In this document: one piece after another, positions 13,423 through 60,981 of the stretch
Position numbering within the stretch: position 1 is the stretch's first letter
How the letters are laid out: every line of letters begins with the position of its first letter
NCBI GenBank assembly: GCA_964558415.1
Contig: CAZLDI010000007.1
Span: 75,898-139,897, forward strand
Direction of reading: 5' to 3'
DNA length: 64,000 nucleotides
Source: an uncultured Dehalococcoidia bacterium
Lineage (GTDB): Bacteria; Chloroflexota; Dehalococcoidia; SM23-28-2; RBG-16-64-32
Translations under genes and position numbers: made by a program
Notes under the pieces: generated by a model
The model's input: the letters and a program-made list of their open reading frames with translations, nothing else
The model's database searches: none
What the model was told of the DNA's origin: nothing

Positions 13423-13430
13423 CGATCGGG

Positions 13431-13480: not shown

Positions 13481-13515
13481 CACGTGGATGCGGGGGATGC
13501 TGCCAGCGAACGCCG

Positions 13516-13595
13516 TTCACACCCCACACGCCGCCAGATTCCTTCGCGAAGAAGCACCGTGCCACGCCCCGAATGTGGCAGTCGCTCAGAATGAC
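13516..13595 (+). repeat. REP-like dispersed repeat copy
   Basis: TTCACACCCCACACGCCGCCAGATTCCTTCGCGAAG...GTCGCTCAGAATGAC. Confidence 0.75.
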
Positions 13596-13597
13596 TT

Positions 13598-13640
13598 GGG
13601 GATCGCGGAAGTGACGGCGGTGGCGGCGCTGGCGTAGGGA
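13598..13640 (+). repeat. diverged third copy of the CoA-transferase 3' tail
   Basis: GGGATCGCGGAAGTGACGGCGGTGGCGGCGCTGGCGTAGGGA encodes GIAEVTAVAALA*, against GIAELMVAGALA* in the native tail. Confidence 0.6.
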
Positions 13641-16694: not shown

Positions 16695-18338
16695 ATGGCG
16701 ATGATAGACGGCGGCGACCTAGTGGTGCGCGCGATCAAGCAGGAGGGCGTGGATACGATATTCACGCTGTGCGGCGGGCACGTGCAGGCGATCTACGACG
16801 CGTGCCTGGACGAGAACGTGCGGGTGATCGACACGCGGCACGAGCAGGTGGCGGGGCACGCGGCGGAGGGGTGGAGCCGGGCGACGCGGCGCTGCGGGGT
16901 GGGGGTGGTGACGGCGGGGCCGGGGGTGACGGACTGCACGACGGCGATCGCGAACGCCTGGCACAACAAGAGCCCGATGCTGATCATCGGCGGCCGCAGC
17001 CCGCTGTCTCGCTTCGAGATGGGGTCGCTGCAGGATATGGACCACACGGAGATGCTGAAGCCGATCACGAAGTGGGCGAAGTGCGTACACGAGACGAAGC
17101 GCATCCCGGAGTACATCTCGATGGGGTTCCGGGCGGCGCTGACGGGGCGGATGGGGCCGTCGTTCCTGGAGATCCCGACGGACGTGCTGTTCATGAAGGT
17201 GGAGGAGAACGAGGTGTTCTTCCCGCAGAGCTATCGTCCGGAGGGTCGCGTCTATCCTGACCCGAAGAGCGTGCGCAAGGCGGCGGAGGCGCTGCGGAGC
17301 GCCGAGCGGCCGGTGATCATGGCGGGCTCGGCGATCTACTGGAGCGAGGCGCACGAGGAGCTGCGGGAGCTGGCGGAGCTGATGCAGGCGCCGGTGTACC
17401 TGAACGCGATGGGACGGGGCTCGCTGAACCAGGAGCACGCGCTGTTCTACAGCCGCAGCCGGCGGACGGCGCTGACGAAGGCGGACTGCATCCTGGTGAT
17501 CGGGACGCCGATGGACTTCCGGCTGTCGTACGGGAAGCGATTCAACCCCGAAGCGAAGACGATCCAGGTGGACACCGATCCCGCGGAGCTGGGCCGCAAC
17601 CGCGACATCGACATCCAGCTCGAGGCCGACGCCCGGGCGAGCCTGGAGTCGCTGACGGCGGAGCTTTCCGGGTTCAAGGACGATCACAAGGCGTGGTTGG
17701 GGGAGCTGCGGGAGCAGGAGGACAAGACGCGCGCGCAGATGGAGGAGTGGATGGCGAGCGACCGCGAGCCGATCCACCCGCTGCGGTTGTGCGCGGAGAT
17801 GGCGAACTTCGTGGACGAGAACACGATCGTCGTGGGCGACGGCGGGGACATCGTCAGCCACGCCTCGAAGATACTGCCGGTGAACCAGCCCGGGCAGTGG
17901 TATGACCCGGGCCCGTTCGGGACGCTGGGCGTGGGGACGGGTTTCTGCATGGCGATCAACAGCGTGTACCCGAACAAGCGCATCCTGATGGTCAACGGCG
18001 ACGGGGCTTTCGGGCTGAACGGCTTCGACTTCGACACGTTCGTGCGCTTCAACATCCCGGTGGTGTCCGTGGTGGGGAACGACCGGCAATGGGGACAGAT
18101 CACGGTGGGACAGCGCGCGATGTACGGGAAGGACCGGGTGGTGGCGAGCATGCTGGGGGACGAGTGCCGGTACGACAAGATCGTCGAAGGGATGGGCGGC
18201 CACGGGGAGTACGTCACGAAGCCGGACGAGATCCGGCCGGCGATCGAGCGGGCGTTCGCATCCGGGAAGCCGGCGTGCGTGAACGTAATTATGGACCAGG
18301 AGCCGCCTGGGATCATGGGCGGGTACGAGTTTATGTAG
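16695..18338 (+). CDS. thiamine-pyrophosphate-dependent enzyme (acetolactate synthase / oxalyl-CoA decarboxylase family)
   Basis: 547 aa with PYR, central and PP domains. ThDP motif GDGAFGLNGFDFDTFVRFNIPVVSVVGND. RBS GGAAGGAG upstream. Confidence 0.85.
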   Translation: MAMIDGGDLVVRAIKQEGVDTIFTLCGGHVQAIYDACLDENVRVIDTRHEQVAGHAAEGWSRATRRCGVGVVTAGPGVTDCTTAIANAWHNKSPMLIIGGRSPLSRFEMGSLQDMDHTEMLKPITKWAKCVHETKRIPEYISMGFRAALTGRMGPSFLEIPTDVLFMKVEENEVFFPQSYRPEGRVYPDPKSVRKAAEALRSAERPVIMAGSAIYWSEAHEELRELAELMQAPVYLNAMGRGSLNQEHALFYSRSRRTALTKADCILVIGTPMDFRLSYGKRFNPEAKTIQVDTDPAELGRNRDIDIQLEADARASLESLTAELSGFKDDHKAWLGELREQEDKTRAQMEEWMASDREPIHPLRLCAEMANFVDENTIVVGDGGDIVSHASKILPVNQPGQWYDPGPFGTLGVGTGFCMAINSVYPNKRILMVNGDGAFGLNGFDFDTFVRFNIPVVSVVGNDRQWGQITVGQRAMYGKDRVVASMLGDECRYDKIVEGMGGHGEYVTKPDEIRPAIERAFASGKPACVNVIMDQEPPGIMGGYEFM

Positions 18339-18461
18339 GGAGCAGCGATGCGCGCTATCAGCTGATGAGCTCACACTCCGCCGCCCGGGATGATCCACGG
18401 AATTGGCACAGATGTACACGGAGAATGAGCCGCTCGGCTACCCGCAGATGAGAGTAGATGG

Positions 18462-19367
18462 ATGCCACGCATAGACTACGGCGGCGGGCTGACTATCGAC
18501 GCGCCGGAGGGGATGACCGTCCTTGAGACGTCGATCCAGCATGGGCTGGAGCACAGGGCCGCCTGCGGCGGACAGGAGCGCTGCACCACCTGTCGAATCG
18601 AAATACTTGACGGTACTGAGAACTGCCCGCCGAGCACGGCCGGCGAGCGCGAGGTCCTGGAGCTCGGAGGCTTTGGGGAAGACATCCGGCTCGGCTGCTC
18701 TCTCAGGCCATCGGGCGATATCAAGATCCGGCTTCTCGTCCGCGAGAGGATCGGTAAAGAAGACCTGCGACCGGAGGGGATGGCGCGAGAACGGGAGGTG
18801 GCCGTTTTGTTCGCGGATATCCGCAACTTCACCGCCTTCTCAGAGAATCACCTCGCTTTCGACGTCCTGCATCTTCTCAACCGCTACTTCGACCGTATGG
18901 GCACTATCATCGACTTCAATCGCGGCGAAGTGATTGCCTTCCTGGGAGACGGAATCGTCGCCTTCTTCGAGGGCGGCGACCCGACGCGAGCGGCAGTCGC
19001 CGCCACGCGGTGCGCCACCCAGATGCTCAAGGGCGCGCAGGCATTCTCGCGCTACTCAACTGAGCACTTCGGTTTCGATGTGCGGACCGGCATTGGCATC
19101 GCCTTCGGCCCGGCGGTGATCGGCGAGGTCGGGTACTACCGCAACACCCGTCCGAACTGTATCGGCGACGTGGTGAACACCGCGTCGCGCGTACAGGACG
19201 CAACGAAGGAACACGGCGCGTCTCTCCTGGTGACGGACGCCATCCGCAAGCTAGCCGAAGGCAAGTTCGAGTTCGGGCGCGAGTTTACCTGCGAGCTGCG
19301 CGGCAAGGAGGGAGAGCATCAGTTGTACGAAGTGCTGCGGGAGAAGCGAAGTCGCGCTCGTGCTTGA
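18462..19367 (+). CDS. 2Fe-2S ferredoxin domain fused to a class III adenylate/guanylate cyclase catalytic domain
   Basis: N-terminal ~95 aa carry Cys C-x5-C-x2-C...C (ACGGQERCTTC...LGCS). The C-terminal cyclase homology domain has metal-binding Asp residues (VLFADIRNFT, LGDGIVAFF) and transition-state residues (NTASRV). Confidence 0.85.
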   Translation: MPRIDYGGGLTIDAPEGMTVLETSIQHGLEHRAACGGQERCTTCRIEILDGTENCPPSTAGEREVLELGGFGEDIRLGCSLRPSGDIKIRLLVRERIGKEDLRPEGMAREREVAVLFADIRNFTAFSENHLAFDVLHLLNRYFDRMGTIIDFNRGEVIAFLGDGIVAFFEGGDPTRAAVAATRCATQMLKGAQAFSRYSTEHFGFDVRTGIGIAFGPAVIGEVGYYRNTRPNCIGDVVNTASRVQDATKEHGASLLVTDAIRKLAEGKFEFGREFTCELRGKEGEHQLYEVLREKRSRARA

Positions 19368-19490
19368 CGCTGCGTTGTGACACGGGTCACAGGCAAAAGG
19401 CGGGAGGAGGTCTATCATGCGAGCGGGCCGCGCGGTGGCAAGGAGAACTTCGCCGCTCCCGACGCAGGGAGGGAAGGGCCAGGTGACAAG

Positions 19491-21230
19491 ATGAGACTCA
19501 TGGAAGCTGAACGGAAGGCAAGCGTCGACGTCTGCCCCCTCGAAGAGCTTCAGCGCGAGCGCGTGAAGGTCGTCTCGGCGGAGGGGCGCGTAATCGCGGT
19601 GTTCTACGAGGAAGGGAAGCTCTACGCGCTGGACAACCGCTGCCCGCACATGGGCTTCCCGTTGAATCGCGGGACTGTGAAGGACGGCATCCTGACCTGC
19701 CACTGGCACCACGCGAAGTTCGATCTCGCCGGGGGCTGCACGTTCGACCCTTTCGCGGACGACGTGACGCGCTTCCATGTGGAGGAGCGCGAGCGCACGG
19801 TCTGGCTCGATCCGAGGCCGATCGAGGAGGACCGGCGCGTACACTGGCTGGGCAAACTCGACGAGGGGCTGGAACAGAACCTGCGATTAGTGCTGGCGAA
19901 GAGCGTGATCGGCCTCGAGGGGCTCGACGCGACGCGAGATATTCTGACCAAGGCGGCGCTCTTCGGGATACGCAACCGGGTGTCGGGCTGGAGCAGCGGC
20001 CTCTCGATTATGACGGGGATGGCAAACGTGCTGCCGTCGCTCGACGAAGCCGACCGGCCTCTGGCGCTGTACCAGGGACTCGTGCACGTCGCCCGGACGA
20101 CCGAGGGGCAGCCTCCGAGCTTCGATCTCGAAGCACTTAACACAGATGAGAAGCGGCCGGCGCGCTATCTCGACTGGTTCCGGCGCTTCATCGAGGTGCG
20201 GGCGGAGGACGCGGCGGAGCGGACGCTGCGCACGGCGATCCGCATCGGGCTGCCAGAGCGGGCGGTGGCAGACATGGTTTTCGCTGCCTGTACCGACCAC
20301 CTCTTCCTGAACGAGGGGCACTCACTGGACTTCGCGAACAAGGCGTTCGAGCTGCTGGACCACATCGGCTGGGAGCACGCAGAGGAGGTGCTGGTCTCGC
20401 TCATCCCCGACTTCATCCAGGCGACGCGAATGGAAGAGACGTCGCCCTGGCGGCACCCAGTCAACTTACCGGAGCTACTGGGCGAGGTCTACCAGCAGCT
20501 CGATGCGGCGATCGATGAGGGCGGCGGGAAGCTGAACGGATGGGCTGAACACCAAGCGCTGGCGGAGCAGATACTGGACGGCGAGCCGAAGGAGACGCTC
20601 GCTGCGATGCTAGACGCTGTGCGGCAGGGTGCGCCGCTGACGGAGCTTTCGGCGACAGTGGCGTACGCGGCGGTGCGGCGACCGGTGCACTTCCGCGTGA
20701 CGAACGAGTTCGCCGACTGGGACACGATCCACCACACGTTCACGTACGCCAACGGCGTCGACCAGGCGGTGCGGCGGGCGCCGTCAAAGCTGCTGGCGCG
20801 CGGCATCTTCGACGGGGCAATGTCGGTTTACCTGGAGCGATTCCTCAACGTCCCCAAGCAGCCTATACCGACGCCCTCGGGTGGCACGGCCAGTCGTGGG
20901 GAAATATTGGCCTCATTCGACGAGCAAGGGAAGGTGGATGAGGCGGCGCAGCAGGTGGCGGACGCGATCGCCGCGGGGAATCAGAGCGAAATAATTGGGA
21001 CACTGGGCCACGCGTTGCTGCGGGAGGACGCGCACTTCCACCAGTTCCAGATCTACGAAGCGGGACTCCGCCAGTACGGCAACTTCGGTAATACACCGCT
21101 GGGTGACCACGTTCTCATCGGGACGACGCGCTTTCTGGCGGCGCGCTCACCGACGGTGCGGGCGACACCGCAGACGTACGACATCGCGGCGCGGCTGCAT
21201 CGGGGAGAGTCCCTGCACGGGGAGGATTAA
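19491..21230 (+). CDS. Rieske [2Fe-2S] domain protein with a large uncharacterised C-terminal helical domain
   Basis: Rieske boxes CPHMG...CHWHH near the N-terminus. RBS AGGGAGGGAAGG upstream of the ATG at 19491. The ~440-aa C-terminal region has no recognised motifs. Confidence 0.75.
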   Translation: MRLMEAERKASVDVCPLEELQRERVKVVSAEGRVIAVFYEEGKLYALDNRCPHMGFPLNRGTVKDGILTCHWHHAKFDLAGGCTFDPFADDVTRFHVEERERTVWLDPRPIEEDRRVHWLGKLDEGLEQNLRLVLAKSVIGLEGLDATRDILTKAALFGIRNRVSGWSSGLSIMTGMANVLPSLDEADRPLALYQGLVHVARTTEGQPPSFDLEALNTDEKRPARYLDWFRRFIEVRAEDAAERTLRTAIRIGLPERAVADMVFAACTDHLFLNEGHSLDFANKAFELLDHIGWEHAEEVLVSLIPDFIQATRMEETSPWRHPVNLPELLGEVYQQLDAAIDEGGGKLNGWAEHQALAEQILDGEPKETLAAMLDAVRQGAPLTELSATVAYAAVRRPVHFRVTNEFADWDTIHHTFTYANGVDQAVRRAPSKLLARGIFDGAMSVYLERFLNVPKQPIPTPSGGTASRGEILASFDEQGKVDEAAQQVADAIAAGNQSEIIGTLGHALLREDAHFHQFQIYEAGLRQYGNFGNTPLGDHVLIGTTRFLAARSPTVRATPQTYDIAARLHRGESLHGED

Positions 21231-21277
21231 GGAGGCTAGTTGGTCCAAGAACTGCTTCGGGTTCACGCGCCCGCGGA

Positions 21278-21371
21278 CGGGCGTTCGCGTCAAGGAAGCC
21301 TCCGTTCGTGAACGTGATTATGGACCAGGAGCCGCCTGGGATCATGGGCGAGTACGAGTTTATGTAGGGAG
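21278..21371 (+). repeat. diverged direct repeat of the 3' tail of the TPP-enzyme gene (copy 2), 2.95 kb downstream of the native tail
   Basis: The core GTGAACGTGATTATGGACCAGGAGCCGCCTGGGATCATGGGCGAGTACGAGTTTATGTAGGGAG (21308-21371) matches 18279-18342 with 2 mismatches, and weaker similarity extends ~30 bp further upstream. In frame it encodes ...RAFASRKPPFVNVIMDQEPPGIMGEYEFM*, against ...RAFASGKPACVNVIMDQEPPGIMGGYEFM* in the native gene. Confidence 0.85.
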
Positions 21372-21401
21372 AGGCGGTGCCCCGCGGCGGAGAGTAGTCT
21401 C

Positions 21402-21434
21402 CCGCTCATCCTACGAGTGCCTCAGGATGAGCGG
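21402..21434. terminator. hairpin following the displaced TPP tail copy (probable original terminator of the TPP gene)
   Basis: CCGCTCATCCT-acgagtgcctc-AGGATGAGCGG. Confidence 0.4.
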
Positions 21435-21546
21435 TGGTAGCCTCTCTGACCGCCGCCTGAGGTGACGCCTTTCGCTTGCGCGCCTCAGGACCCACCTGTA
21501 ATCTTCTCAACATCGGTTCGACGAGCTATCCATCTGGAGGTACGCT

Positions 21547-21887
21547 ATGGGAAAGCTGAATTGCATCGTCATCGACTGCGCGGACCCCGACAAGGCCTCG
21601 CAATTCTGGGCGCAGGCGCTCGAAGGGTACGAGATCGACAAACAGCCGTGGGGCATCTCGATGAGTCCGACTCTGATCCGCTGATCTACTTCGAGGTCGT
21701 GCCGGAGGGTAAGGCCGTGAAGAACCGCCTGCACATCAACATCCGTTCCGCGGACCGAGGGGTGGAGGTGAAGCGGCTCGTCTCGCTCGGCGCGACGGAG
21801 ATCGAGGAGATGAGCCCGGGCGGCGGCTACGTCTGGACGAACATGAAGGACGTCGAGGGGAACGAGTTCTGCGTGTCGCAGGCTTAG
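21547..21887 (+). pseudogene. VOC/glyoxalase-family gene with an apparent +1/-1 frameshift (or a sequencing error)
   Basis: The N-terminal part MGKLNCIVIDCADPDKASQFWAQALEGYEI... reads in one frame and stops near 21681. The C-terminal part DPLIYFEVVPEGKAVKNRLHINIRSADRGVEVKRLVSLGATEI... continues in another frame to 21887. Confidence 0.5.
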
Positions 21888-23383: not shown

Positions 23384-23500
23384 ACGCTCCATACCCTCTA
23401 TCCGTAGCAATACCGTCTTCTATCAGTAATACTATCACATGCCGGGTCGACGCAGTTGAGATGTGGGCGGGCATGCCTGAACGCCCGGGGCGCGGCCTGA

Positions 23501-23579
23501 TCCACCACGCCGCCAACCCCAGATTCCTTCGCGGCGAGAGTAATCGCAGGTTGCGAGCGTTGGGGCGCTCAGAATGACA
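23501..23579 (+). repeat. REP-like dispersed repeat copy
   Basis: CCACCACGCCGCCAACCCCAGATTCCTTCGCGGCGAG...GGCGCTCAGAATGACA. Confidence 0.75.
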
Positions 23580-23605
23580 GAGGGAGCCGGGCTCCGCGGG
23601 AAAGC

Positions 23606-31595: not shown

Positions 31596-31677
31596 TGACC
31601 CACCGCGCCTCCGCCACCCGGATTCCTTCGCGGCAAGCGGGGTCGGCGCGTTCCACTGGATGGGCGCTCAGAATGAC
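31596..31677 (+). repeat. REP-like dispersed repeat copy
   Basis: ACCCACCGCGCCTCCGCCACCCGGATTCCTTCGCGGCAAG...GGGCGCTCAGAATGAC. Confidence 0.75.
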
Positions 31678-31683
31678 GTGGGT

Positions 31684-45827: not shown

Positions 45828-45910
45828 CTGACCCACGACCCCACGCCGCCCAGATTATTCGCGAAGATACGGCTCGCCGCGATCGGGGCGTGTCGCCGCT
45901 CAGAATGACA
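45828..45910 (+). repeat. REP-like dispersed repeat copy
   Basis: GACCCACGACCCCACGCCGCCCAGATTATTCGCGAAG...CGCCGCTCAGAATGACA. Confidence 0.7.
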
Positions 45911-45944
45911 TCGAGGCGACCGTTCAGTCGCCCGGAGGTGGCGC

Positions 45945-49746: not shown

Positions 49747-50961
49747 ATGGGATCTAATCAGGCCATAGAGCGCGCGAAGGAGCACTTCGCGCATGTAGTC
49801 GCCGGACAGCTGGCGCGGGTGGAGCGGATGAAGGCGGCGGAGGACTGGACGGACTACGGGTCGCTGAAGCCGATCATTCTCGGCGTCTGCGGGGGCGACG
49901 GGATCGGGCCGTACATCACCGCGGAGGCGCGGCGGGTGCTGGCGTTCCTGCTGGCGCCGGAGGTGGAGAGCGGGAAGGTGGTCTTCCGCACGATCGAGGG
50001 GCTGACGATCGAGAACCGCGCGCAGCAAAACACGGCGATACCGGACGACGTGCTGGCCGAGCTGAAGAAGTGCCATGTCATCCTGAAGGGCCCGACGACG
50101 ACGCCGCGCGCGGGGGACCAGTGGGCGAACATCGAGAGCGCGAACGTGGCGATGCGGCGGGAGCTGGACTTGTTCGCGAACGTGCGGCCGGTGCGTGTGC
50201 CTGAGCAGGGGATCGACTGGATCTTCTTCCGCGAGAATACGGAAGGGGCGTACATCCTGGGCAGCCACGGGGTGAATGTGACGGAGGACCTGGCGATCGA
50301 CTTCACGGCCGTGACGACGCAGGGGAGCGAGCGGATCATCAAGCTGGCGTTCGATCACGCGAGCCGCAACGGGATCAACAAGGTGACGGTGGTGACGAAG
50401 GCGAACGTGGTGAAGACGACGGACGGGAAGTTTCTGGACACGGCGCGGAGGATCTCGAAGGATTACCCGGAGGTGGTCTGGGACGACTGGTACATCGACA
50501 TCATGACGGCGAAGCTGGTGGACCCGAAGCGGCGGACGGAGTTCAAGGTCGTCGTGCTGCCCAACCTTTACGGCGACATCCTGACGGACGAAGCGGCGGA
50601 GTTCCAGGGGGGCGTGGGGACCGCGGGCAGCGCGAACATCGGCAAGCGGTATGCGATGTTCGAGGCGATCCACGGCAGCGCGCCGCGCATGGTGGACGAG
50701 GGACGCGCGGACTACGCCGACCCGAGCAGCATGATCCGGGCGGCGGCGATGCTGCTGAACCACACCGGTTTTGCGGACCGGGGCAAGCGGCTGGAGATGG
50801 CGCTGGACGTGTGCGGGAACCTGGAGAAGCGGCTGGTCGTGACCGGACGGCCGACGGGGGCGAAGGGGTCGGAGTTTGCCGATTACATCATGGAGACGCT
50901 GCAGGACTCGGGGCTGGAGGAGAAGTGGCGGGGGTACCAGGATGGAGGAAGTAGGAAGTAG
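49747..50961 (+). CDS. icd: isocitrate dehydrogenase (isocitrate/isopropylmalate dehydrogenase family)
   Basis: NLYGDILTD motif and the SANVAMRRELDLFANVRPV region. Genomic context with acnA and mdh. Confidence 0.75.
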   Translation: MGSNQAIERAKEHFAHVVAGQLARVERMKAAEDWTDYGSLKPIILGVCGGDGIGPYITAEARRVLAFLLAPEVESGKVVFRTIEGLTIENRAQQNTAIPDDVLAELKKCHVILKGPTTTPRAGDQWANIESANVAMRRELDLFANVRPVRVPEQGIDWIFFRENTEGAYILGSHGVNVTEDLAIDFTAVTTQGSERIIKLAFDHASRNGINKVTVVTKANVVKTTDGKFLDTARRISKDYPEVVWDDWYIDIMTAKLVDPKRRTEFKVVVLPNLYGDILTDEAAEFQGGVGTAGSANIGKRYAMFEAIHGSAPRMVDEGRADYADPSSMIRAAAMLLNHTGFADRGKRLEMALDVCGNLEKRLVVTGRPTGAKGSEFADYIMETLQDSGLEEKWRGYQDGGSRK

Positions 50962-51080
50962 GAAGAAGGAAGGTGGAGGTAGGAAGCCCGTGGGGCATAT
51001 CACCCTGGAGCGGGACGAGGGTCGCGGCTAACGGGGACGCTTCGACGTGTCCCGCCGGTTGTTGGAGACCGTGAGCTAAC

Positions 51081-51114
51081 CCGGACGGATTCTTCGCTGC
51101 GCTCAAGAATGACA
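51081..51114 (+). repeat. short REP-like copy immediately 5' of the mdh RBS
   Basis: CCGGACGGATTCTTCGCTGCGCTCAAGAATGACA. Confidence 0.5.
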
Positions 51115-51133
51115 GCAGAATGAGGAGGAATGA

Positions 51134-52066
51134 TTGCGAGCTAAAGTAACGGTAGTGGGCGCCGGGATGACCGGCGGGACGATGGCACAGAGGCTGGCGG
51201 AGACGGGGCATGTGGACGTGGTGCTGCAGGACATCATCGAGGGGTTGCCGCAGGGTAAGGCGCTTGACCTCGCCGAGGAGGCGGCGCACGCCGGGTTTAC
51301 GGCGAAGGTCACCGGCTCGAACGATTGGGCGGACACCAGAGGGTCGGACGTGGTAGTGATCACTTCGGGTGTGCCGCGCAAGCCGGGGATGACGCGGGAG
51401 GAGCTGCTGAACATCAACGCCGGGATCGTCGGCGGTGTCGCGAGGAGCGCGGCGAAGGCCTCGCCGAAGGCAGTGTTCATCATCTTCGCGAACCCTATGG
51501 ACGTGATGTGCCACGTCGCACTGGAAGCGAGCGGCTTTCCGGCAAACCGTGTGATCGGGCAGGGGGGGATGCTGGACAGCGCACGCTACCGGACGTTTAT
51601 CGCCTGGGCGGCGAAGGCGTCGGTGCAGGACGTGCACGCGCAGGTGCTGGGCGGACACACGGAAGCGACGATGGTGCCGATCGTGAGCACGGCGCACGTG
51701 GGCGGCGTGCCGCTGACGAAGCTGCTTTCGAAGAAGAAGATCGAGGGGGTGGTGCAGCGAGCGAAGAACGGCGGGGCGGAGATCGTCTCGTTGCTGAAGA
51801 CCGGGTCGGCGTTCTACGCGCCGGCGGCGGCGACGGTGGAGATGGTGGAGGCGGTGCTGCTGGACAAGAAGCGCATCCTCCCTTGCGCCACGCTGGCGGA
51901 CGGGCAGTACGGGATCCAGGGCGCGTATGTGGGGCTGCCGGTGAAGGTGGGGGCGAAGGGGATAGAAGCGGTGTACGAGCCGCCGCTGTGGGACAGCGAG
52001 ATCGCGGGGATCCGCGGGGCGGCGGAGTCGACGCGGGAGCTGGTGGGGCTGATCGAGAAGAAGTAG
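51134..52066 (+). CDS. mdh: malate dehydrogenase (LDH-like MDH)
   Basis: TTG start 6 nt after GAGGAGG. GVPRKPGMTREEL with Arg at the specificity position. Catalytic His in GGHTE. Confidence 0.9.
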   Translation: MRAKVTVVGAGMTGGTMAQRLAETGHVDVVLQDIIEGLPQGKALDLAEEAAHAGFTAKVTGSNDWADTRGSDVVVITSGVPRKPGMTREELLNINAGIVGGVARSAAKASPKAVFIIFANPMDVMCHVALEASGFPANRVIGQGGMLDSARYRTFIAWAAKASVQDVHAQVLGGHTEATMVPIVSTAHVGGVPLTKLLSKKKIEGVVQRAKNGGAEIVSLLKTGSAFYAPAAATVEMVEAVLLDKKRILPCATLADGQYGIQGAYVGLPVKVGAKGIEAVYEPPLWDSEIAGIRGAAESTRELVGLIEKK

Positions 52067-52092
52067 GCTCCACGAGAGGCAGGAGGTCACTG

Positions 52093-52875
52093 ATGCCTGA
52101 ATACGTGTTCGACAACGCCAGCGAACAGACTCCGACCCGGTTCTCCGCGCTCGAAGGGCTATTCGACGCCGGGACGTTCCGCCACATCGACTCGCTAGGG
52201 ATCGCGCCGGGATCGCGCTGCCTTGAGGTGGGAGGCGGCTCGGGGTCCGTGGCCAGGGGGCTGAGCGCGCGCGTCGGGGACCGCGGCCAGGTGGTGGTTA
52301 CCGACATCGACACCAGACACCTCACGGGAATGGATGAGCCAAACATCGAGGTCCGGCAACACGACATCGTTGCTGACGACCTGGAAGAGGACCACTATGA
52401 CGCGGCACACACGAGGCTGGTGTTGCTGCACATTCCAGAACGCGAGAGGGCCATCGAGCGGATCGTGAGGTCCCTGCGGCCGGGTGGATGGCTGCTTTTC
52501 GAAGAGTTCGACTCGCTGTCGATGCCGCCCGATCCAGAACTGAATCCCTCGGAGCACTTTCTGAAGACTCTAGGCGCTCTCTGGAAAGTGATGGCATCCG
52601 AGGGTGTGAACCTGCGCTTCGGCAGGCTCTTGCCAGGAATCCTGGAGAAGATGGGGTTGCGAGACGTCGGCGCCGAGGCGACGGCGTTCTTGTTCAAGGG
52701 AGCCTCGACCGGCGCTGCGGTGCTGCGCGCAAACTTCTTGCAGATGCGCGACAAGTTGATAGCCTCCGGATACATCACCGAAGGCGAATTCGAGGCCGAC
52801 CTTGCAAGGCTGGATGACCCCGGCGTGGAGTGGCCGTCCTGGGTGTTGTGGTCGGTCTGGGGCCGACGGTCATAG
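52093..52875 (+). CDS. class I SAM-dependent methyltransferase
   Basis: Motif I LEVGGGSG. RBS AGGAGG. Its stop codon is followed in frame by an mdh-tail copy. Confidence 0.8.
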   Translation: MPEYVFDNASEQTPTRFSALEGLFDAGTFRHIDSLGIAPGSRCLEVGGGSGSVARGLSARVGDRGQVVVTDIDTRHLTGMDEPNIEVRQHDIVADDLEEDHYDAAHTRLVLLHIPERERAIERIVRSLRPGGWLLFEEFDSLSMPPDPELNPSEHFLKTLGALWKVMASEGVNLRFGRLLPGILEKMGLRDVGAEATAFLFKGASTGAAVLRANFLQMRDKLIASGYITEGEFEADLARLDDPGVEWPSWVLWSVWGRRS

Positions 52876-52923
52876 GCGGCGGCGTCCACGCGGGAGCTGG
52901 TGGGGCTGATCGAGAAGAAGTAG
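52876..52923 (+). repeat. direct repeat of the mdh 3' tail (copy 2 of 3)
   Basis: GGCGGCGGCGTCCACGCGGGAGCTGGTGGGGCTGATCGAGAAGAAGTAG matches 52019-52066 with 2 mismatches. The last 39 nt are identical. Confidence 0.9.
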
Positions 52924-53050
52924 CGCTGGGGAGGCAGGCCGGGCGGGCGGCGCAGCGTGCTGCGCCCTCATTCTCACTACCCACCCATCCTTCGATACCC
53001 CGCCACAGAGGGGTGCAGGCTCTCAGCGTGAGCACAACGCGACCTCGCAC

Positions 53051-53067
53051 TGTAGAATAGCCGCATC
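53051..53067 (+). promoter_or_regulatory. extended -10 (TGTAGAAT) promoter giving a leaderless mRNA for the hydrolase-cyclase gene
   Basis: TGTAGAATAGCCGCATC-ATG. A 45-bp block spanning the promoter and the first 8 codons is near-identical at 54518-54560. Confidence 0.45.
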
Positions 53068-54393
53068 ATGGAACCTCAGGTCCGGTACGTCACAAGCTCA
53101 GACGGCACGAGGATCGCCACGTGGAGGCTCGGTAAGGGCACGCCGCTCATACTGGTACGTCCGATCTGGTCGCTCCCGACTGCGCTGCACTGGCTGAGTC
53201 CATCAGACCGAGGCCATCTGGAGCGGCTTGCGGGCAAGCGGACTGTCATCATGTACGACAACCGCGGACAGGGCCTCTCCGACCGCGAGGCGGGTGATCT
53301 CTCGCTTGAGGCGAGGACGGCCGATCTCGCTGCTGTGGTACAAAGCCTGGGAGTTCGTCCCTTCGATCTCATGGCAATGGCCAACTCAGCGCCGGTCGCG
53401 ATAGCGTACGCGGCCGACAATCCCGACAGGGTCCGCTGCCTCGTACTCAGCAGCGCCGCTGCGCGCGGCCGGGACATCAGGCTGTCACCACAGCGGCACG
53501 CTATTGCCCGGTTAGCGGAGGTTGACTGGGCGCTTTTCAACCGTGTTGGGGCGCTCATCTCATACGGCTTCACAGAGTTCGCTGAGTTGGTGGCGGAAAC
53601 GGGCGCAGCCAGCATCACGCCCGAAACATTCCTCCGGGCCACAAAAGCCGCCTGGCAGTTCGATGCAACCGGCGGTGTCTCTAAGGTGGCCTGTCCAACG
53701 CTGGTCCTCCATCAAGAGCGAGGCGAGGTCCCAATTGAAGTGTCGAGGCAGCTCGCCGCTTCGCTCCCGGACGGACGTCTGGTCGTCTATGATCAGCCAT
53801 TCTCATCCACGCTCGGGACGACTGAGACAGTCGACAACATCGAGGCGTTCCTGGACGAGGGCGACCCCGGCGCGGCGGCTCCCGCCGAAGCTCTCCCCTC
53901 GGGCACCGCCATCATCCTGTTCACGGACATCGCAGACTCCACGGCGCTAACGGAGAAGATGGGTGACGCGGCGTTCCGCGAGACGGCACACGACCTCGAC
54001 GAACGCATGCGGTCAGCCATCCGCGAGGCGGGCGGCAAGCCCGTCGAGGGCAAGGTGCTCGGCGACGGGGTCATGGCGCTGTTCACGTCGGCAGCGCAGG
54101 CGATAGAGGCGGCGGTTCGCTGCCGAGACGCTGGTAGTCACAGCGAGATGCCGATACACGTCGGGGTACACGCTGGCGATGTGATCAGGGATGGGAACAC
54201 AGTTTACGGGGGCGCCGTCAACGTGGCGTCTCGCGTGTGCGGTCTCTCAGCCACAGGCGAAGTGCTGGTCTCCGAGACTGTGCGTTCGCTGGCGCGCACC
54301 TCCGCTGGCGTGCGGTTCGAGGACCGCGGTGAGCACGAGCTGAAGGGGGTGGGGGAGGCGGTACGGGTGTGGGCGGTGGTGCAGAACCAGTGA
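53068..54393 (+). CDS. alpha/beta-hydrolase domain fused to a class III adenylate/guanylate cyclase (LipJ/Rv1900c-like)
   Basis: N-terminal alpha/beta-hydrolase fold, ~270 aa. C-terminal cyclase homology domain with metal-binding Asp residues (ILFTDIADST, LGDGVMALF) and NVASRV. Confidence 0.85.
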   Translation: MEPQVRYVTSSDGTRIATWRLGKGTPLILVRPIWSLPTALHWLSPSDRGHLERLAGKRTVIMYDNRGQGLSDREAGDLSLEARTADLAAVVQSLGVRPFDLMAMANSAPVAIAYAADNPDRVRCLVLSSAAARGRDIRLSPQRHAIARLAEVDWALFNRVGALISYGFTEFAELVAETGAASITPETFLRATKAAWQFDATGGVSKVACPTLVLHQERGEVPIEVSRQLAASLPDGRLVVYDQPFSSTLGTTETVDNIEAFLDEGDPGAAAPAEALPSGTAIILFTDIADSTALTEKMGDAAFRETAHDLDERMRSAIREAGGKPVEGKVLGDGVMALFTSAAQAIEAAVRCRDAGSHSEMPIHVGVHAGDVIRDGNTVYGGAVNVASRVCGLSATGEVLVSETVRSLARTSAGVRFEDRGEHELKGVGEAVRVWAVVQNQ

Positions 54394-54462
54394 TAGACCC
54401 ACAGATTAGGTACGATCGGAGCGCCGATGGGGATGAGGTCGCGGAAATCTTGAAGGCGAATC

Positions 54463-54499
54463 CACGCGGGAGCTGGTGGGGCTGATCGAGAAGAAGTAG
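54463..54499 (+). repeat. direct repeat of the mdh 3' tail (copy 3 of 3)
   Basis: TCCACGCGGGAGCTGGTGGGGCTGATCGAGAAGAAGTAG is identical to the last 39 nt of mdh. Confidence 0.9.
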
Positions 54500-54517
54500 G
54501 CGGTCGCGCTGCCACGC

Positions 54518-54534
54518 TGTAGAATAGCCGCAAC
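54518..54534 (+). promoter_or_regulatory. extended -10 (TGTAGAAT) leaderless promoter, paralogous copy
   Basis: Identical to 53051-53067. Confidence 0.45.
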
Positions 54535-55869
54535 ATGGAACCTCAGGTCCGGTACGTCACCAGTGCCGACGGGACGAAGATTGCCACGTGGCGGATCGGT
54601 AAGGGCACGCCCCTCATTCTCATCGGTTCCATTTGGGCAACGCCGGCTGAGCTTCAGTGGATGGTCGCACGGGACCGGACCCATCTTGAGCGGCTCGCGA
54701 ATAACCGCATGGTCGTCCTGTACGACCAGCGCGGACAGGGCCTATCCGACCGCGATGTGGACGACTTTTCTCTCGCCGCCAGGGTGAGCGATCTGGCGGC
54801 CGTCTTACAAAGTCTGCAGGCACCATCGGTCGATGTCGTGGCGGCGACCAATTCCGCCCCGGTAGCCATCACCTACGCCGCTGACCACCCGGAACGAGTC
54901 CGTCGACTCATCCTCACCAGCGCTGCCGCCCGCAATCGCGACATCCGACTCACACCCCAGCGTCACGCCATCGCGAGACTGGCTGAGGTCGACTGGTTGT
55001 TGTTCAACCAGGTCCACGCGTTGATTACTCACGGGTTCACAGAGTTCTCCGGACTGATCGCCGAGACTTCGGCGGCGAGCATCACCCCGGAGAAATTCGC
55101 AGCCGCGATGAGCGCTGCCTGGCAGTTCGACGCGACCGATAATCTCTCCCGGGTGACGTGTCCAACACTGGTGCTGCACCTGTGGAGTGAAGCTCCGATC
55201 GAGCTCTCGAAGCAGCTTGCAGCCACTATCCCGGACGCCCAACTGGTGGTCTTCCAGCAGCCGTACGGCACAACCCTTGGCCTACTGGAGACGATCGAAA
55301 ACATAGAGGCGTTCCTGGACGAGGATGATGTCCCGGCAACGCAGAGCGTCGAGACCACCCTCCCCTCCGGCATGACGGCGATCCTGTTCGCCGACATCGT
55401 CGACTCCACGGCGCTCACCGAACGCCTCGGTGATGCCGCCTTCCGCGAGAAGGCGCGTGAGCTCGGGGCCTCGTTGCGGGGGCTGATCCGTGAGTGCGCA
55501 GGAATACCGGTCGAGGGGCCGACGCTAGGGGACGGCGTGCTGGCGGCCTTCACGTCGGCGCGAGAGGCAATCGAGGCGGCGCAGCGCTGCGGCAAGGCGG
55601 GCGGTAACGCCGGTTTGCCCCTGCACCTCGGCATCCACGCCGGCGATGTGACGCGTGAGAAGGATCCGGACGGGCGCGACAACGTCTACGGGGGCGCCGT
55701 CAACATCGCCTCGCGGATCAGCGCGCTGTCGGCGGCGGGGGAGGTGCTGGTGTCGGATGTCGTCCGAACGTTGGCGCGCACATCGGCGGGGGTGCGGTTC
55801 GAGGACCGCGGCGAGCAGACGCTTAAGGGCGTGGGGGAGGCGGTGCGGGTGTGGGCGGTAAGTGACTGA
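54535..55869 (+). CDS. alpha/beta-hydrolase domain fused to a class III adenylate/guanylate cyclase (second LipJ-like paralog)
   Basis: By eye ~65% identical to 53068-54393. The first 8 codons and the last 13 residues are identical. Confidence 0.85.
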   Translation: MEPQVRYVTSADGTKIATWRIGKGTPLILIGSIWATPAELQWMVARDRTHLERLANNRMVVLYDQRGQGLSDRDVDDFSLAARVSDLAAVLQSLQAPSVDVVAATNSAPVAITYAADHPERVRRLILTSAAARNRDIRLTPQRHAIARLAEVDWLLFNQVHALITHGFTEFSGLIAETSAASITPEKFAAAMSAAWQFDATDNLSRVTCPTLVLHLWSEAPIELSKQLAATIPDAQLVVFQQPYGTTLGLLETIENIEAFLDEDDVPATQSVETTLPSGMTAILFADIVDSTALTERLGDAAFREKARELGASLRGLIRECAGIPVEGPTLGDGVLAAFTSAREAIEAAQRCGKAGGNAGLPLHLGIHAGDVTREKDPDGRDNVYGGAVNIASRISALSAAGEVLVSDVVRTLARTSAGVRFEDRGEQTLKGVGEAVRVWAVSD

Positions 55870-60084: not shown

Positions 60085-60858
60085 TCAGGCGAGCCCGAGG
60101 TCGGCAACGCAGAGGGCCATCTCGAACGTGAAGCCGTTCGCGCCCGTGTAGGGTCCCACGTAGCAGCCGATTCCGGCGGCGGCGTAACCGGCGCCCATGA
60201 CGATCGACTGATGCGGCGGGCTGGCCAGCCAGATATCCACCACGAGACCGGCGGTCGGCGAGGCGAGCACCAGCACCTCGCCCACACCGGCGGCGTAGCC
60301 CTGCCGGAGCGCGCGATCGGCCGGTGTGCCGTCGAGGGTGTGGCTCAACGCTGCCAGAGTGGTCTGGAAGTGGAGCTCGGCGTACTGCTGGGCGGCGGAC
60401 GTGAGGGCGACATTGTTGTTGAGCAGCGACAGTCCCTGGGCGGCACGGCGGTCATTCAAGAGTGAGGCCACAGAGCGCGCCAGATCGACACCGGGGCCGC
60501 TGGCGGGGGGCCGTGGCGGGGAAGCCGTGGGAGGCGGCGGCGATGTGGGTGGGGGCGGCGTTGGGCGAGCGGTTGGAGCTGCGGTTGGGTCAGGTAACGG
60601 CGCGAGCGTTGGTCCGGGTGTCGAAGAGGGAGGCGCTGAAGGTGTGGGCCGGGCAGTCGCGTGGGCCTTCGGCCGGGCGCGATGAACGAGCGGCGACATG
60701 GAGCCGGCCGGCGGCTGCGATCCGTTCTGTACGGACGCGGCCCCGAGGCCAAGGGCAAAGACGGCAGAGACCGCGACGACGGCGGCCCAGAATCGCCTCT
60801 TTGCGGCCCCCGAAAGCAGGGAACGCCGAGCATGTCCCCTCATGAACCTCCCTATCAC
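60085..60858 (-). CDS. secreted CAP/SCP/PR-1-like domain protein with a Pro/Thr/Ala-rich linker
   Basis: Signal peptide, then a PT-rich region, then a CAP-domain-like C-terminus (HSQIVM-like HQSIVMGAGYAAAGIGC). Confidence 0.65.
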   Translation of the reverse strand: MIGRFMRGHARRSLLSGAAKRRFWAAVVAVSAVFALGLGAASVQNGSQPPAGSMSPLVHRARPKAHATARPTPSAPPSSTPGPTLAPLPDPTAAPTARPTPPPPTSPPPPTASPPRPPASGPGVDLARSVASLLNDRRAAQGLSLLNNNVALTSAAQQYAELHFQTTLAALSHTLDGTPADRALRQGYAAGVGEVLVLASPTAGLVVDIWLASPPHQSIVMGAGYAAAGIGCYVGPYTGANGFTFEMALCVADLGLA

Positions 60859-60981
60859 GAGCGGCGACCGGTTGTTTCGGCAGTCTAATCGCCCGTGATA
60901 GACGGGGCAATCACAATTGGTGGTGTGTTTATAGGAAGAGTCTAGGAACTCTGTTGGGATGAAGCTGCGCCGGCCGCCCGG

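Follow-up and report, generated by a model that had tools for sequence, protein, structure and literature searches.

Copies of the malate dehydrogenase gene tail separate serially arranged genes behind mdh in an uncultured Dehalococcoidia bacterium

Results

Gene Order and Tail Copies Downstream of mdh

The window, i.e., the whole stretch of 64 kb that was analyzed, stems from an uncultured bacterium of the Chloroflexota/Dehalococcoidia. It carries mdh, a conserved core gene whose product shares 55–89% amino acid identity with its counterparts in relatives and which lies in conserved acn-icd-mdh-...-fumA synteny. The following features were found at this locus:

51134-52066, + strand: mdh, LDH-like malate dehydrogenase (ORF; Pfam Ldh_1_N and Ldh_1_C)
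52019-52066, + strand: tail copy 1, the functional mdh 3' end (encoding …AAESTRELVGLIEKK and the stop), with the exact core at 52031-52066
52067-52875, + strand: insert unit 1, a 26-nt spacer with Shine-Dalgarno sequence, and MT
52093-52875, + strand: SAM methyltransferase gene MT (Pfam Methyltransf_23/11/12/25)
52876-52923, + strand: tail copy 2, an orphan directly after the MT stop codon TAG and in frame with MT
52924-54460, + strand: insert unit 2, a 126-nt non-coding stretch with promoter-like CTGTAGAATAGCCGCATC, cyc1, and a 67-nt trailer
53068-54393, + strand: cyc1, alpha/beta-hydrolase and class III cyclase (gene call, Pfam)
54461-54499, + strand: tail copy 3, an orphan identical to copy 2 (39/39), followed by native mdh-downstream sequence
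54500-55869, + strand: native neighbour, a 35-nt intergenic region with a promoter-like motif as at cyc1, and cyc2
54535-55869, + strand: cyc2, alpha/beta-hydrolase and class III cyclase (gene call, Pfam)
from 55876/55909: 2-hydroxyacid dehydrogenase gene (gene call, Pfam)

The gene calls and Pfam agreed with the identities that an earlier note on this DNA had assigned to mdh, MT, the two hydrolase-cyclases and the 2-hydroxyacid dehydrogenase. The products of cyc1 and cyc2 share 66% amino acid identity (about 69–75% at the nucleotide level), and the GC3 and GC skew of insert unit 2 were below those of the TCA-cycle genes.

The 36-nt core ACGCGGGAGCTGGTGGGGCTGATCGAGAAGAAGTAG, which is the mdh 3' tail including the stop codon, occurred in three exact copies on the + strand (52031-52066, 52888-52923 and 54464-54499), with 0 occurrences expected by chance (100 dinucleotide-preserving shuffles). 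Thus, the claim of the earlier note that the tail recurs twice downstream was confirmed. Copy 2 equaled copy 1 at 47 of 49 positions (52875-52923), while copy 3 was identical to copy 2 over 39 positions (54461-54499) and to copy 1 over 38 (54464-54501). Copy 3, which had been placed at 54463-54499, is real, that span being off by about two bases (54461/54464 by alignment). The position of copy 2 directly behind the MT stop codon and in frame, likewise claimed before, was seen in the sequence; an arm site would not fit in between. Copy 1 reads GAG TCG, as do the functional tails of the relatives L083, L084 and L088; copy 2 reads GCG TCC, and TCC is common to copies 2 and 3. No tail copy was found downstream of cyc2. 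The tail displayed no dyad symmetry, inverted repeat, hairpin or significant fold (z -0.6); it gave no Rfam hit and contained no ORF of its own. Next to the orphan copies, no conserved motif was seen on the element side. The hexamer GCGG(C/T)C was observed 3' of the stop codon in L083, in L088 and at copy 3.

Integrity of the Assembly

An independent JGI contig (L001) was 99.96% identical over 16 kb and had the same gene order. The Logan unitig L002 (SRR6155509) corresponded to 52894-54490 of the window and ended exactly inside copies 2 and 3, as is expected of a k=31 graph at a true 36–39-nt repeat. The tail array is not an obvious assembly artefact. For an artefact, strain variants with different mdh-downstream genes would have been threaded serially through the shared 36-nt k-mer. 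The DNA stems from a metagenome in which relatives co-occur, L088 being from the same sample, and short-k unitigs do break at the repeat. However, the junctions of the MT stop and of the cyc1 trailer with the start of a tail are unique and must exist in reads, the latter being contained in the independent unitig L002. Moreover, the two assemblies agree, reads are longer than the repeat (up to 49 nt) and thus span it, and an analogous array is present in L083, which is from another sample. Such threading is considered hardly credible.

The mdh-fumA Interval in Relatives

Relatives share the order acn-icd-mdh followed by a gap of variable length (30 nt to 2 kb) and fumA, the gap content differing among them. 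These genomes have a variable hot spot between mdh and fumA: fumA lies directly 3' of mdh in L004, L012, L020, L021, L023 and L031, and the genes found within the gap in this clade were MT, cyc, F420H2-reductase-like, luciferase-like and cupin genes. MT was the immediate mdh neighbour in L085, L086 and L087; on the P0029 contig it was followed by the luciferase-like gene, and in L084 the F420H2-reductase-like gene came next after mdh. The one-gene mobile cassettes proposed in the earlier note were not upheld, since MT is the ancestral mdh neighbour in L085–L087 and not a roaming cassette.

In L088, mdh is followed after 70 nt by a cyc2 orthologue that is 77% identical to cyc2 at the nucleotide level. 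The L088 mdh tail plus 4 nt aligned to 54458-54503 and its cyc region aligned from 54519 onwards, copy 3 being collinear with the mdh-cyc junction of L088. Tandem cyc genes occurred in L089 with no tail copies in between. The order in L083 was mdh-tail, cupin, a decayed tail with 4/38 mismatches, a spacer as in the window, and MT. The 10 nt after the functional stop of L083 (GCGGCCAGAA) are the start of the native mdh-downstream sequence of L088, and the L083 insert thus derives from an mdh-downstream context. Between the window and L083, tail, spacer and MT were 94% identical, as compared to 88.5% for mdh; because divergence is discontinuous, the tail-spacer-MT unit was exchanged laterally. 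In none of 40 GTDB relatives was the relative's own mdh tail present in a further copy, and a donor with mdh followed by cyc1 was not found.

Tail Duplications at Other Genes of the Window

Tails of two further genes of the window were found to be duplicated:

12069-13316: CoA-transferase gene, with its tail three times within 13268-13639, + strand
13268-13319, 13429-13480 (51/52) and 13598-13639 (36/42), + strand: CoA-transferase tail copies
13342-13422 and 13516-13597, + strand: dispersed ~85-nt element E, one in each spacer between these tails
16695-18338: TPP-dependent enzyme gene, its functional tail (18249-18342, + strand) duplicated downstream
18343-21277, + strand: insert between the TPP-gene tail copies (Pfam of its genes)
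18462-19367, + strand: Fer2 and cyclase-domain gene in this insert (Pfam)
19377-21230, + strand: Rieske-domain gene in this insert (Pfam)
21278-21371, + strand: orphan TPP-gene tail, 94 nt with 8 mismatches, including non-synonymous ones
21547-21887: glyoxalase gene, native neighbour, after the orphan TPP-gene tail

Similarity at the orphan TPP-gene tail ran on for ~17 nt beyond the stop codon. The insert was missing from L090 and L091; in both, Glyoxalase_6 comes 13 nt after the TPP gene. L091 also had an empty site at the CoA-transferase locus. The tail-insert-tail footprint was present at two unrelated genes of the window and also in the relatives L012 and L018, with duplication lengths of 42–111 nt at these other tails (TPP gene, CoA-transferase, L012, L018). 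Element E was numerous, and all its window copies were on the + strand. Its right end was constant (…CGCTCAGAATGAC plus 2–10 nt) and abutted the duplication in three independent insertions from two genomes, while the left-end filler varied; six of nine E copies had no flanking duplication. Older orphan tails decay, with non-synonymous changes.

All eight events were of the tail type, and the 5' head of the downstream gene was duplicated in none. The right edge of the duplication lay 0–31 nt past the stop codon and the left edge 38–94 nt upstream of it, i.e., 39 and 48 nt upstream at the mdh gene of the window and about 38–44 nt in L083. Five events were counted in the 64-kb window vs 2–3 in ~1.3 Mb of relatives' loci (~20-fold).

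Search for Mobile-Element Machinery

Integrase, transposase or reverse transcriptase domains were detected by Pfam in none of the ~55 window ORFs. The scanned ORFs of the 64-kb window and of all cassettes contained no recombinase domain, in line with the earlier note, and no nuclease candidate was found in the window. The gaps hold ORFs of up to 120 aa, except for a 257-aa ORF (60085-60858, overlapping the gap 60288-60981) that lies outside the Pfam scan.

Discussion

Three mdh-downstream alleles follow one another in the window, each with a tail in front of it, the last tail being that before the native cyc2. We tentatively favor, at somewhat less than an even chance, serial insertion-duplication anchored on the conserved gene tail and independent of a recombinase, with the tails as passive scars. 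DNA of a related strain, bearing the mdh end and that strain's own downstream neighbour, would enter the cell and pair via the short, highly conserved last ~40–50 nt of mdh. The incoming piece would be joined in, giving a new functional tail and its gene, and the resident tail with all sequence behind it would be displaced downstream as an orphan. Two such events would place cyc1, and then MT, ahead of cyc2. In its topology, the event may be of the Campbell type, with one crossover in the tail and a circularised fragment; alternatively, a homologous crossover may be combined with an illegitimate joint, as in homology-facilitated illegitimate recombination (HFIR) or unequal crossing-over. The molecular route would involve RecA-type pairing in the tail and a second joint of one of these kinds.

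The allele pattern, with TCG in copy 1 and TCC in copies 2 and 3, would fit an incoming functional tail and orphans that are the older resident tail, and likewise the surrogate tail that incoming DNA was earlier suggested to bring. The footprint at the unrelated TPP-gene and CoA-transferase tails and the empty sites in L090 and L091 also argue for insertion-duplication. Transformation-driven unequal crossing-over has been documented experimentally (PMC3784515). As cited in PMC2884548, HFIR was shown experimentally by de Vries & Wackernagel, Meier & Wackernagel and Prudhomme et al., and HFIR and Campbell-type insertion-duplication occur during natural transformation in Acinetobacter, Pseudomonas stutzeri and S. 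pneumoniae. In these processes, a conserved gene supplies a short homologous anchor through which neighbouring foreign DNA is taken up into the genome, no conserved motif marks the second joint, the anchor may flank the insert on both sides and no element-encoded enzyme is needed, all of which resembles the mdh array. Laboratory HFIR, however, usually deletes recipient DNA without duplicating the anchor, uses anchors of ~150 bp or more and has scattered joints, whereas the mdh anchor is ~40–50 nt with joints clustered at its left edge, and the events are numerous and exclusively tail-sided.

Several observations speak against insertion-duplication. The second joints are non-random (the probability that three random joints all lie within the final 50 nt of a gene of 930 nt is ~1e-4), a clustering not predicted by classical HFIR, and head-type events are lacking among the eight. 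The five events in 64 kb are far above expectation for rare illegitimate recombination. A divergent donor would in most cases leave differences, but the three 36-nt cores are perfectly identical; a crossover at the far left of the tail would be an exception. The mdh-cyc1 donor was not found, and the CoA-transferase and L012 inserts each consist of a discrete element of ~85 nt whose right end is defined, which resembles transposition more than the stacking of alleles.

The earlier note had proposed serial integration by a site-specific system. Its serial character, with one tail per event, was borne out by L088 and L083; the dedicated recombinase was not. For such a system, the last ~39 nt of mdh would be attB, and recombinase-less circles (MT, cyc1; cupin in L083) with an attP/tail would be integrated one by one by a tyrosine or serine recombinase whose gene lies outside the window, elsewhere on the chromosome or assembly, similar to cis-mobilisable tandem accretion. 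Classical cases of tandem accretion leave n+1 direct repeats at a gene 3' end, and they are known from ssrA islands in Dehalococcoidia (PMC3146451), the class to which the host belongs here. As in the Dehalococcoides islands and tycheposons (bioRxiv 10.1101/2020.12.28.424599), n+1 repeats of the target 3' end bound n inserts, the newest insert adjoins the gene, older ones are displaced away from it (inward in tycheposons), and some units have no integrase of their own. Perfect core identity would be expected if circles excise and re-integrate in one population, the repeats have left edges that are clustered at -39 to -48, and the GCGG(C/T)C after the stop could belong to a site. In contrast to tandem accretion, the window units comprise one gene (0.8–1.5 kb) or even ~110 nt, an integration module, recombinase or conserved element-side motif is not visible in the window, the repeats are variable (36–111 nt) and located at several unrelated protein-gene tails, and the mdh cargo is the neighbour gene of the homologous locus in relatives. 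A single att-specific enzyme cannot account for the footprint at unrelated tails. In addition, the tail has neither symmetry nor fold, the abutting MT stop leaves no element side at copy 2, MT is an ancestral neighbour, the 40 GTDB relatives carry no extra tail, and the orphans decay and are thus not maintained as sites. Site-specific integration is considered unlikely. That no described mechanism produces the pattern, as also claimed, was too strong, since both tandem accretion and Campbell-type insertion-duplication yield such a topology.

An unrecognised polar mechanism is slightly more doubtful. It would insert DNA just past stop codons and duplicate the preceding 40–110 nt, e.g., through target-primed or template-switch copying at the 3' ends of genes, or by an enzyme whose nicks are staggered by 40–110 nt, and would move the abundant element E and occasionally gene-sized DNA. 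This would account for the exclusively tail-type events and their edges, the constant right end, variable filler, abundance and single strand of E, and the ~20-fold enrichment; perfect identity of the copies would follow automatically from target duplication. However, reverse transcriptase, transposase and nuclease candidates are lacking in the window, most E copies have no flanking duplication, and the gene inserts have no terminal motif in common, either with E or among themselves. The MT and cupin inserts are homologous to relatives' mdh-downstream DNA right from the stop, which target duplication leaves unexplained, and two later mutations would be needed for the two positions at which copies 1 and 2 differ. 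In-place tandem duplication of tail and cyc with a separate MT rearrangement is very improbable. A left breakpoint inside mdh would yield tail-cyc-tail-cyc, the paralogues cyc1 and cyc2 have a promoter-like leader in common, and tandem cyc arrays exist in L089; either gene conversion templated by the functional tail or selection for a function of the tail sequence would then preserve the identity of the tails. Yet the cyc1/cyc2 divergence appears incompatible with equal age of the 39/39 tails (~1e-6, assuming neutral decay). Since cyc1 branches outside the cyc2/L088 pair, the paralogues predate that split, but L088 has neither cyc1 nor an extra tail, and the L089 genes lack an intervening tail. 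Since orphans in L083 and at the TPP locus decay, neither conversion nor selection acts generally; the tail is devoid of structure, Rfam hits and an ORF, and MT and cupin are left unexplained.

The mdh array resembles integron cassette arrays in its same-orientation single-gene units separated by a recurring short sequence beside a fixed point, but it lacks intI and attI, the recurring sequence is a coding-tail copy instead of a hairpin-forming attC, and the cyc units have promoter-like sequences of their own. A non-coding near-copy of a gene 3' end shortly downstream is reminiscent of the TR/VR of diversity-generating retroelements. Unlike there, no reverse transcriptase was found in the window, the mdh copies are identical with genes between them, and the differences of the TPP-gene pair are not adenine-specific. 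In Neisseria minimal mobile elements (MMEs), alleles are swapped via homologous flanks and no duplicated flank is left, and HGT hot spots between conserved flanking genes were reportedly described by Oliveira et al. in 2017. Like these, mdh-fumA is a fixed core-gene interval with accessory genes that differ by strain and are exchanged via homologous flanks; the mdh alleles, however, are stacked serially with a scar per joint, instead of replacing one another.

Under serial insertion-duplication, the orphan tails would be functionless and decaying, and in the meantime the 36–48-nt direct repeats could allow loss of the inserts. The source of the insertions is most likely ordinary recombination between related strains and not a dedicated mobile element.

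Tandem Copies of the mdh 3' End

The earlier note had described three copies of the mdh 3' end (the tail, i.e., the last 39–48 nt including the stop codon) around a methyltransferase and two hydrolase-cyclase genes. Copy 1 is the functional end of mdh, and copies 2 and 3 are orphans. The genes of the locus were assigned by ORF and Pfam analysis.

Genes at the mdh locus of the window
51134–52066, + strand: mdh
52093–52875: MT, SAM methyltransferase
53068–54393: cyc1, alpha/beta-hydrolase with class III cyclase
54535–55869: cyc2, alpha/beta-hydrolase with class III cyclase
last of the genes named behind mdh: 2-hydroxyacid dehydrogenase

The 36-nt string ACGCGGGAGCTGGTGGGGCTGATCGAGAAGAAGTAG occurred exactly three times in the window, always on the + strand (52031–52066, 52888–52923 and 54464–54499). 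Since none was expected in shuffled sequence, a chance repeat was rejected and the repeat is statistically secure. Copy 2 reached 49 nt with 2 mismatches to copy 1; copy 3 was identical to copy 2 at 39 of 39 positions (54461–54499) and to copy 1 at 38 of 38, including two bases past the stop codon. As noted earlier, the MT stop codon directly abuts copy 2, and the two are in frame. No tail copy was found downstream of cyc2. Thus, three direct copies of the mdh end surround two inserts (n+1 repeats for n inserts), and native DNA follows the last repeat, with cyc2 behind copy 3 as in the related locus L088. This topology bears out serial insertion at the mdh 3' end, with one more tail copy per event.

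The repeat finder, the shuffles and two other assemblies confirmed that the copies are real. A JGI contig was 99.96% identical to the window over 16 kb with identical gene order, and a Logan unitig from SRR6155509 corresponded to window 52894–54490, its ends falling within copies 2 and 3, where a genuine repeat would break it. An assembly artefact is therefore scarcely credible. GC3 and GC skew were lower in MT, cyc1 and cyc2 than in the surrounding TCA-cycle genes.

The tail alleles differed. Copy 1 carried GAG TCG, as did the functional tails of the relatives L083, L084 and L088, while TCC was common to copies 2 and 3 and GCG was also present in copy 2. In the simplest reading, which requires no mutation, the functional left copy arrived with the MT unit, and copies 2 and 3 are successive resident tails. 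The surrogate tail that the earlier note ascribed to each incoming element holds to the extent that the allele pattern fits such an arrival.

Several other origins of the junctions and inserts were rejected. The joint cannot be microhomology shared by the end of MT and the mdh sequence preceding the tail, since the MT stop codon is retained at the junction, which thus lies outside that microhomology. A read-through fusion of MT with the tail was discarded, the shared frame being a 1-in-3 coincidence and the MT genes of relatives ending at the same place. A retro-copy (mRNA) origin of the inserts was dismissed because the cyc1 unit includes a promoter-like region and 126 nt upstream.

The sequences before the start codons of cyc1 (53050–53070) and cyc2 (54517–54537) share CTGTAGAATAGCCGCA(T/A)CATG, with a −10-like TAGAAT some 9 nt upstream of each ATG. 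This motif suggests that both may have their own promoter and leaderless transcripts. The cyc gene of L088 has GTAGACTAGGGGAATCATG at the corresponding position. At the end of icd and beyond it (window 50930–50990), short reiterated GGAAGTAG / GGAGGTAG motifs were seen; they may be either simple sequence or decayed, very short reiterations of the tail.

Neighbours of mdh in Related Genomes

Searches with the mdh protein matched solely uncultured Chloroflexota/Dehalococcoidia, at up to 89% amino acid identity, and exact-protein look-ups returned the same contig only, i.e., no strain variants. The order acn-icd-mdh-...-fumA was kept across relatives, with an mdh-fumA interval between roughly 30 nt and 2 kb in length whose gene content varied by genome; a luciferase-like oxidoreductase gene on the opposite strand was commonest. 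In none of 40 GTDB relatives was the genome's own mdh tail found again elsewhere. The metagenome contig L083 held a decayed copy. A metagenome scan with a degenerate tail pattern yielded two contigs only, both informative.

L083 is 1.6 kb long, and its mdh is uniformly 88.5% identical to that of the window. Its mdh ends in TAG and is separated by 21 nt from a cupin gene; 8 nt further on come a decayed tail (CGCCGCGGGAGGTGATGGGGCTGATCGAGAAGTAGTAG, 4 mismatches), a 26-nt spacer and MT. The spacer is the same in the window. The block of tail, spacer and MT was 94% identical between window and L083, against 88.5% for mdh. This divergence break at the anchor marks a lateral origin of the insert and indicates that the block passed between lineages after the divergence of the mdh genes. 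The ten bases past the functional L083 stop codon, GCGGCCAGAA, equal the start of the native mdh-downstream region of L088, so the cupin insert likewise derives from an mdh-downstream context. The decay of the L083 orphan tail indicates that it is not under selection.

MT was located immediately 3' of mdh in L085 (MT 91% amino acid identity) and in L086 and L087 (69%), and in a strain with a 94% MT the luciferase-like gene followed next. MT is an ancestral neighbour of mdh. In L088, recovered from the sample that also gave the JGI contig, icd and mdh are followed by 70 nt and a cyc gene with 77% nucleotide identity to cyc2 and 73% to cyc1, and the mdh tail plus four bases could be aligned to copy 3. 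Thus, cyc2 is a native neighbour of mdh as well. L089 carries at least three cyc genes in tandem, which no tail separates, and in L084 mdh is followed by 30 nt, an F420H2-reductase-like gene and fumA. Empty or otherwise filled sites (L084, L088, L085) were found only in different species or strains. Collinearity with a relative's same locus from the anchor onwards was observed for MT (L083, L085–L087) and for the first 10 nt of the L083 cupin insert (against L088); no donor with cyc1 at the mdh-downstream position was found. From the neighbours of mdh in L085–L087, L088, L089 and L084, it follows that the window presents three alternative post-mdh arrangements in series, each behind an mdh tail, with the last tail leading into the native neighbour. 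No sign supports the dedicated site-specific system with roaming one-gene cassettes that had been proposed.

In the distant L044 (mdh 56% amino acid identity), a stand-alone cyclase-domain gene, 65–69% identical at the amino acid level to the C-terminal half of the cyc proteins, lies between icd and mdh, and an unrelated methyltransferase gene lies between mdh and fumA (L044 genes at 9130–9843 and 10948–11769). No tail repeats were found at either. Cyclase and methyltransferase genes are recurrent around this TCA-cycle cluster.

The Same Footprint at Other Gene Ends

In a self-comparison of the window, all direct repeats belonging neither to paralogues nor to the dispersed element E were duplicated gene tails.

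Further tail duplications and copies of E in the window
16695–21887: second tail-insert-tail locus, TPP-enzyme gene; tail 18249–18342, repeated at 21278–21371
13268–13639: third locus, CoA-transferase gene; tail three times, at 13268, 13429 (51/52) and 13598 (36/42)
13342–13422, 13516–13597, 23500–23580, 31599–31679 and 45833–45911, all + strand: dispersed E copies of about 85 nt
3222–3288, 4207–4273 and 51088–51117, + strand: shorter variants of E

A copy of the last 94 nt of the TPP gene lies 2.9 kb downstream; it has 8 mismatches, including several non-synonymous ones, and a fainter similarity extended about 17 nt beyond the stop codon. Between the copies lie a gene with Fer2 and cyclase domains and a Rieske gene. 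In the relatives L090 and L091 (TPP 92% amino acid identity), the TPP gene is followed by 13 nt and a glyoxalase gene; in the window, the glyoxalase gene stands behind the orphan tail. Compared with L091, the window glyoxalase gene (21547–21887) has a frameshift some 40 codons in, and is either a pseudogene or affected by an indel error.

At the CoA-transferase locus, the tail copies are 52, 52 and 42 nt long. Each spacer of about 110 nt contains one E copy, and divergence is much greater between the spacers than between the tails. In L091 this site is empty. E follows the pattern …CACCCC…GATTCCTTCGCG, 35–45 nt, CGCTCAGAATGAC, with a constant right end and a variable left end, and its copies mostly lie just 3' of stop codons. 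It showed no significant fold and matched no Rfam family. It was nearly absent from the relatives' loci, with one copy each in L012 and L091.

A scan for tail duplications in about 1.3 Mb of relatives' loci returned L012 and L018, the remainder being tails of tandem paralogues. In L012, a different Dehalococcoidia MAG, a 102-nt direct duplication (3159–3502, 95% identical) surrounds one E; the duplicated segment comprises the last 70 nt of a gene and 31 nt past its stop codon with a terminator-like hairpin. In L018 (5500–6371), a 42-nt tail duplication, 93% identical, surrounds an insert of about 790 nt. This insert carries an opposite-strand ORF of 176–188 aa, helix-turn-helix-like in appearance and without Pfam match, and has its own nested direct repeats of about 39 nt at both ends.

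In all eight events, the tail of the upstream gene was duplicated and never the head of the downstream gene. The right edge of the duplication fell 0–31 nt past the stop codon and the left edge 38–94 nt upstream. Five events lie in the 64 kb of the window.

The tails of the three loci had only TAGG in common, which is unremarkable as TAG is the commonest stop codon here. Among 53 window genes, TAG was used in 28, TGA in 19 and TAA in 6, and 13 of the 53 ended in TAGG; TAG as the top stop codon is unusual for a genome of 65% GC. A stop-codon-specific target TAG|G was set aside, TAG being commonest anyway and the duplications at the TPP gene and in L012 reaching 17–31 nt beyond the stop codon. 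Immediately upstream of fpg/mutM (2245–3162, minus strand), tandem repeats of about 14 nt, CCCCTTGCCCCTATGA-like, were seen (window 3083–3206).

Recombination Machinery and Known Systems

The earlier statement that the window holds no recombinase gene agrees with the Pfam scans: no integrase (Phage_integrase), resolvase, transposase or reverse transcriptase was matched in about 55 ORFs of the window. The gaps left between them contained ORFs of at most 120 aa, except a 257-aa ORF (60085–60858), outside the scan, which overlaps the gap 60288–60981. Neither a tyrosine nor a serine recombinase was found in or near the inserts within the 64-kb window. The mdh tail has neither an internal inverted repeat nor a GTTRRRY core, and its fold (−7.1 kcal/mol, z −0.6) was no better than those of shuffles; a hairpin, an attC-like site and a terminator were rejected accordingly. 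The tails matched no Rfam family, and no phage or viral attP with the tail was found in IMG/VR. Conserved element-side sequence beside the orphan copies was absent, their left flanks being unrelated (…GGTCATAG and …GAAGGCGAA in the window, …CCTGCCGC in L083). There is no single specific target site, as the footprint also occurs at unrelated tails.

Integron cassette arrays have an adjacent intI tyrosine recombinase gene with attI, and their attC sites are imperfect palindromes that fold into hairpins with RYYYAAC/GTTRRRY cores. The present array differs in both respects, without a recombinase Pfam match in the window and with a tail lacking fold, inverted repeat and GTTRRRY core. In diversity-generating retroelements, a reverse transcriptase gene lies near the template repeat (TR), and mismatches between TR and the variable repeat (VR) are adenine-specific; this candidate was rejected, since the window has no reverse transcriptase, the mdh copies are identical, and the orphan has adenine in only 3 of the 8 TPP-pair mismatches. 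Classical transposons and IS elements encode a transposase, are bounded by terminal inverted repeats and duplicate a short target whose length is fixed. The array does not fit these either, as no transposase was found in the window, the inserts lack terminal inverted repeats, and the duplications are 39–111 nt long and variable.

The earlier note knew of no described integron, REP or IS mechanism for the pattern, but a precedent exists: tandem accretion is known from Dehalococcoides ssrA islands (PMC3146451) and tycheposons. The architecture of ssrA islands, tycheposons and CIMEs, n+1 repeats with the newest unit beside the gene, is exactly that observed here; in contrast, their recombinase, conserved element-side sequence and single specific target are absent from the 64-kb window.

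Possible Mechanisms

Homology-anchored insertion-duplication is tentatively favoured. DNA from a related strain, carrying the mdh end and its own neighbour gene, would pair via the conserved last 40–50 nt or so of mdh. The incoming tail and gene would then be set in front, either by one crossover with a circularised fragment or by a crossover combined with an illegitimate joint, and the resident tail would be displaced and become an orphan. Between window and L083, the last 48 nt of mdh differ at 1 of 48 positions, against about 8 of 18 in the preceding stretch, and the mdh end is the longest near-identical block adjoining the variable region. Insertion-duplication accounts for the units being native neighbours, the discontinuity of 94% versus 88.5%, the tail allele pattern, the same scar at unrelated genes and the decay of orphans. 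The repeat would end at the stop codon because alleles with different neighbours lose homology there. Homology-facilitated illegitimate recombination (HFIR) is documented as a reaction, as cited in a passage of PMC2884548, and transformation-driven unequal crossing-over is documented as well (PMC3784515); in the literature on HFIR, nothing specific on its yielding duplications was found. Insertion-duplication does not account well for why second joints cluster at the tail's left edge, why the duplications are strictly one-sided, why events are as frequent locally as five in 64 kb or why the three cores are perfectly identical. Nor does it fit the E insertions well, since E resembles a discrete element whose right end is defined.

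Because of these weak points, two rivals are still considered. A site-specific recombinase acting in trans, whose model draws on an architecture exactly that of tandem accretion, is considered unlikely. One att-specific recombinase cannot explain the set of loci, since domain matches in the window, fold and inverted repeat are lacking, the insert-side flanks are unrelated, and the tails share only TAGG. Also unlikely is a previously undescribed polar insertion process that would be active in this Dehalococcoidia lineage just 3' of stop codons and would duplicate the preceding 40–110 nt. Its long, variable and one-sided target duplication would resemble that of target-primed or template-switch insertion, and it would mobilise both the SINE-like E and whole genes, making tail-X-tail arrays like that downstream of mdh. 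Tandem duplication in place with conversion is very unlikely, because the cyc genes are just 66% identical at the amino acid level although the mdh tail copies are identical, and the tandem cyc genes of L089 have no tails.

Accessory-gene hot spots between core genes are common in bacteria, but to our knowledge gene entry into them without mobile-element machinery is rarely visible. Several features go beyond the routine: each unit comprises one gene, or as little as about 110 nt, without any recombination module; the units correspond to alternative neighbours found at the homologous locus itself; and the scar recurs at several genes in 64 kb. Since the duplicated tail marks each joint, the sequence itself shows insertion order, relative age and source directly. 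If a previously unknown enzyme drives the process, prokaryotes would have an insertion mechanism of a new type. If it is independent of a recombinase, about 40 nt of conserved coding sequence would suffice to stack alternative alleles serially instead of swapping them. The lineage concerned is an uncultured Chloroflexota one of soil or groundwater, in which the direct repeats around stacked inserts could make gene gain and loss reversible.
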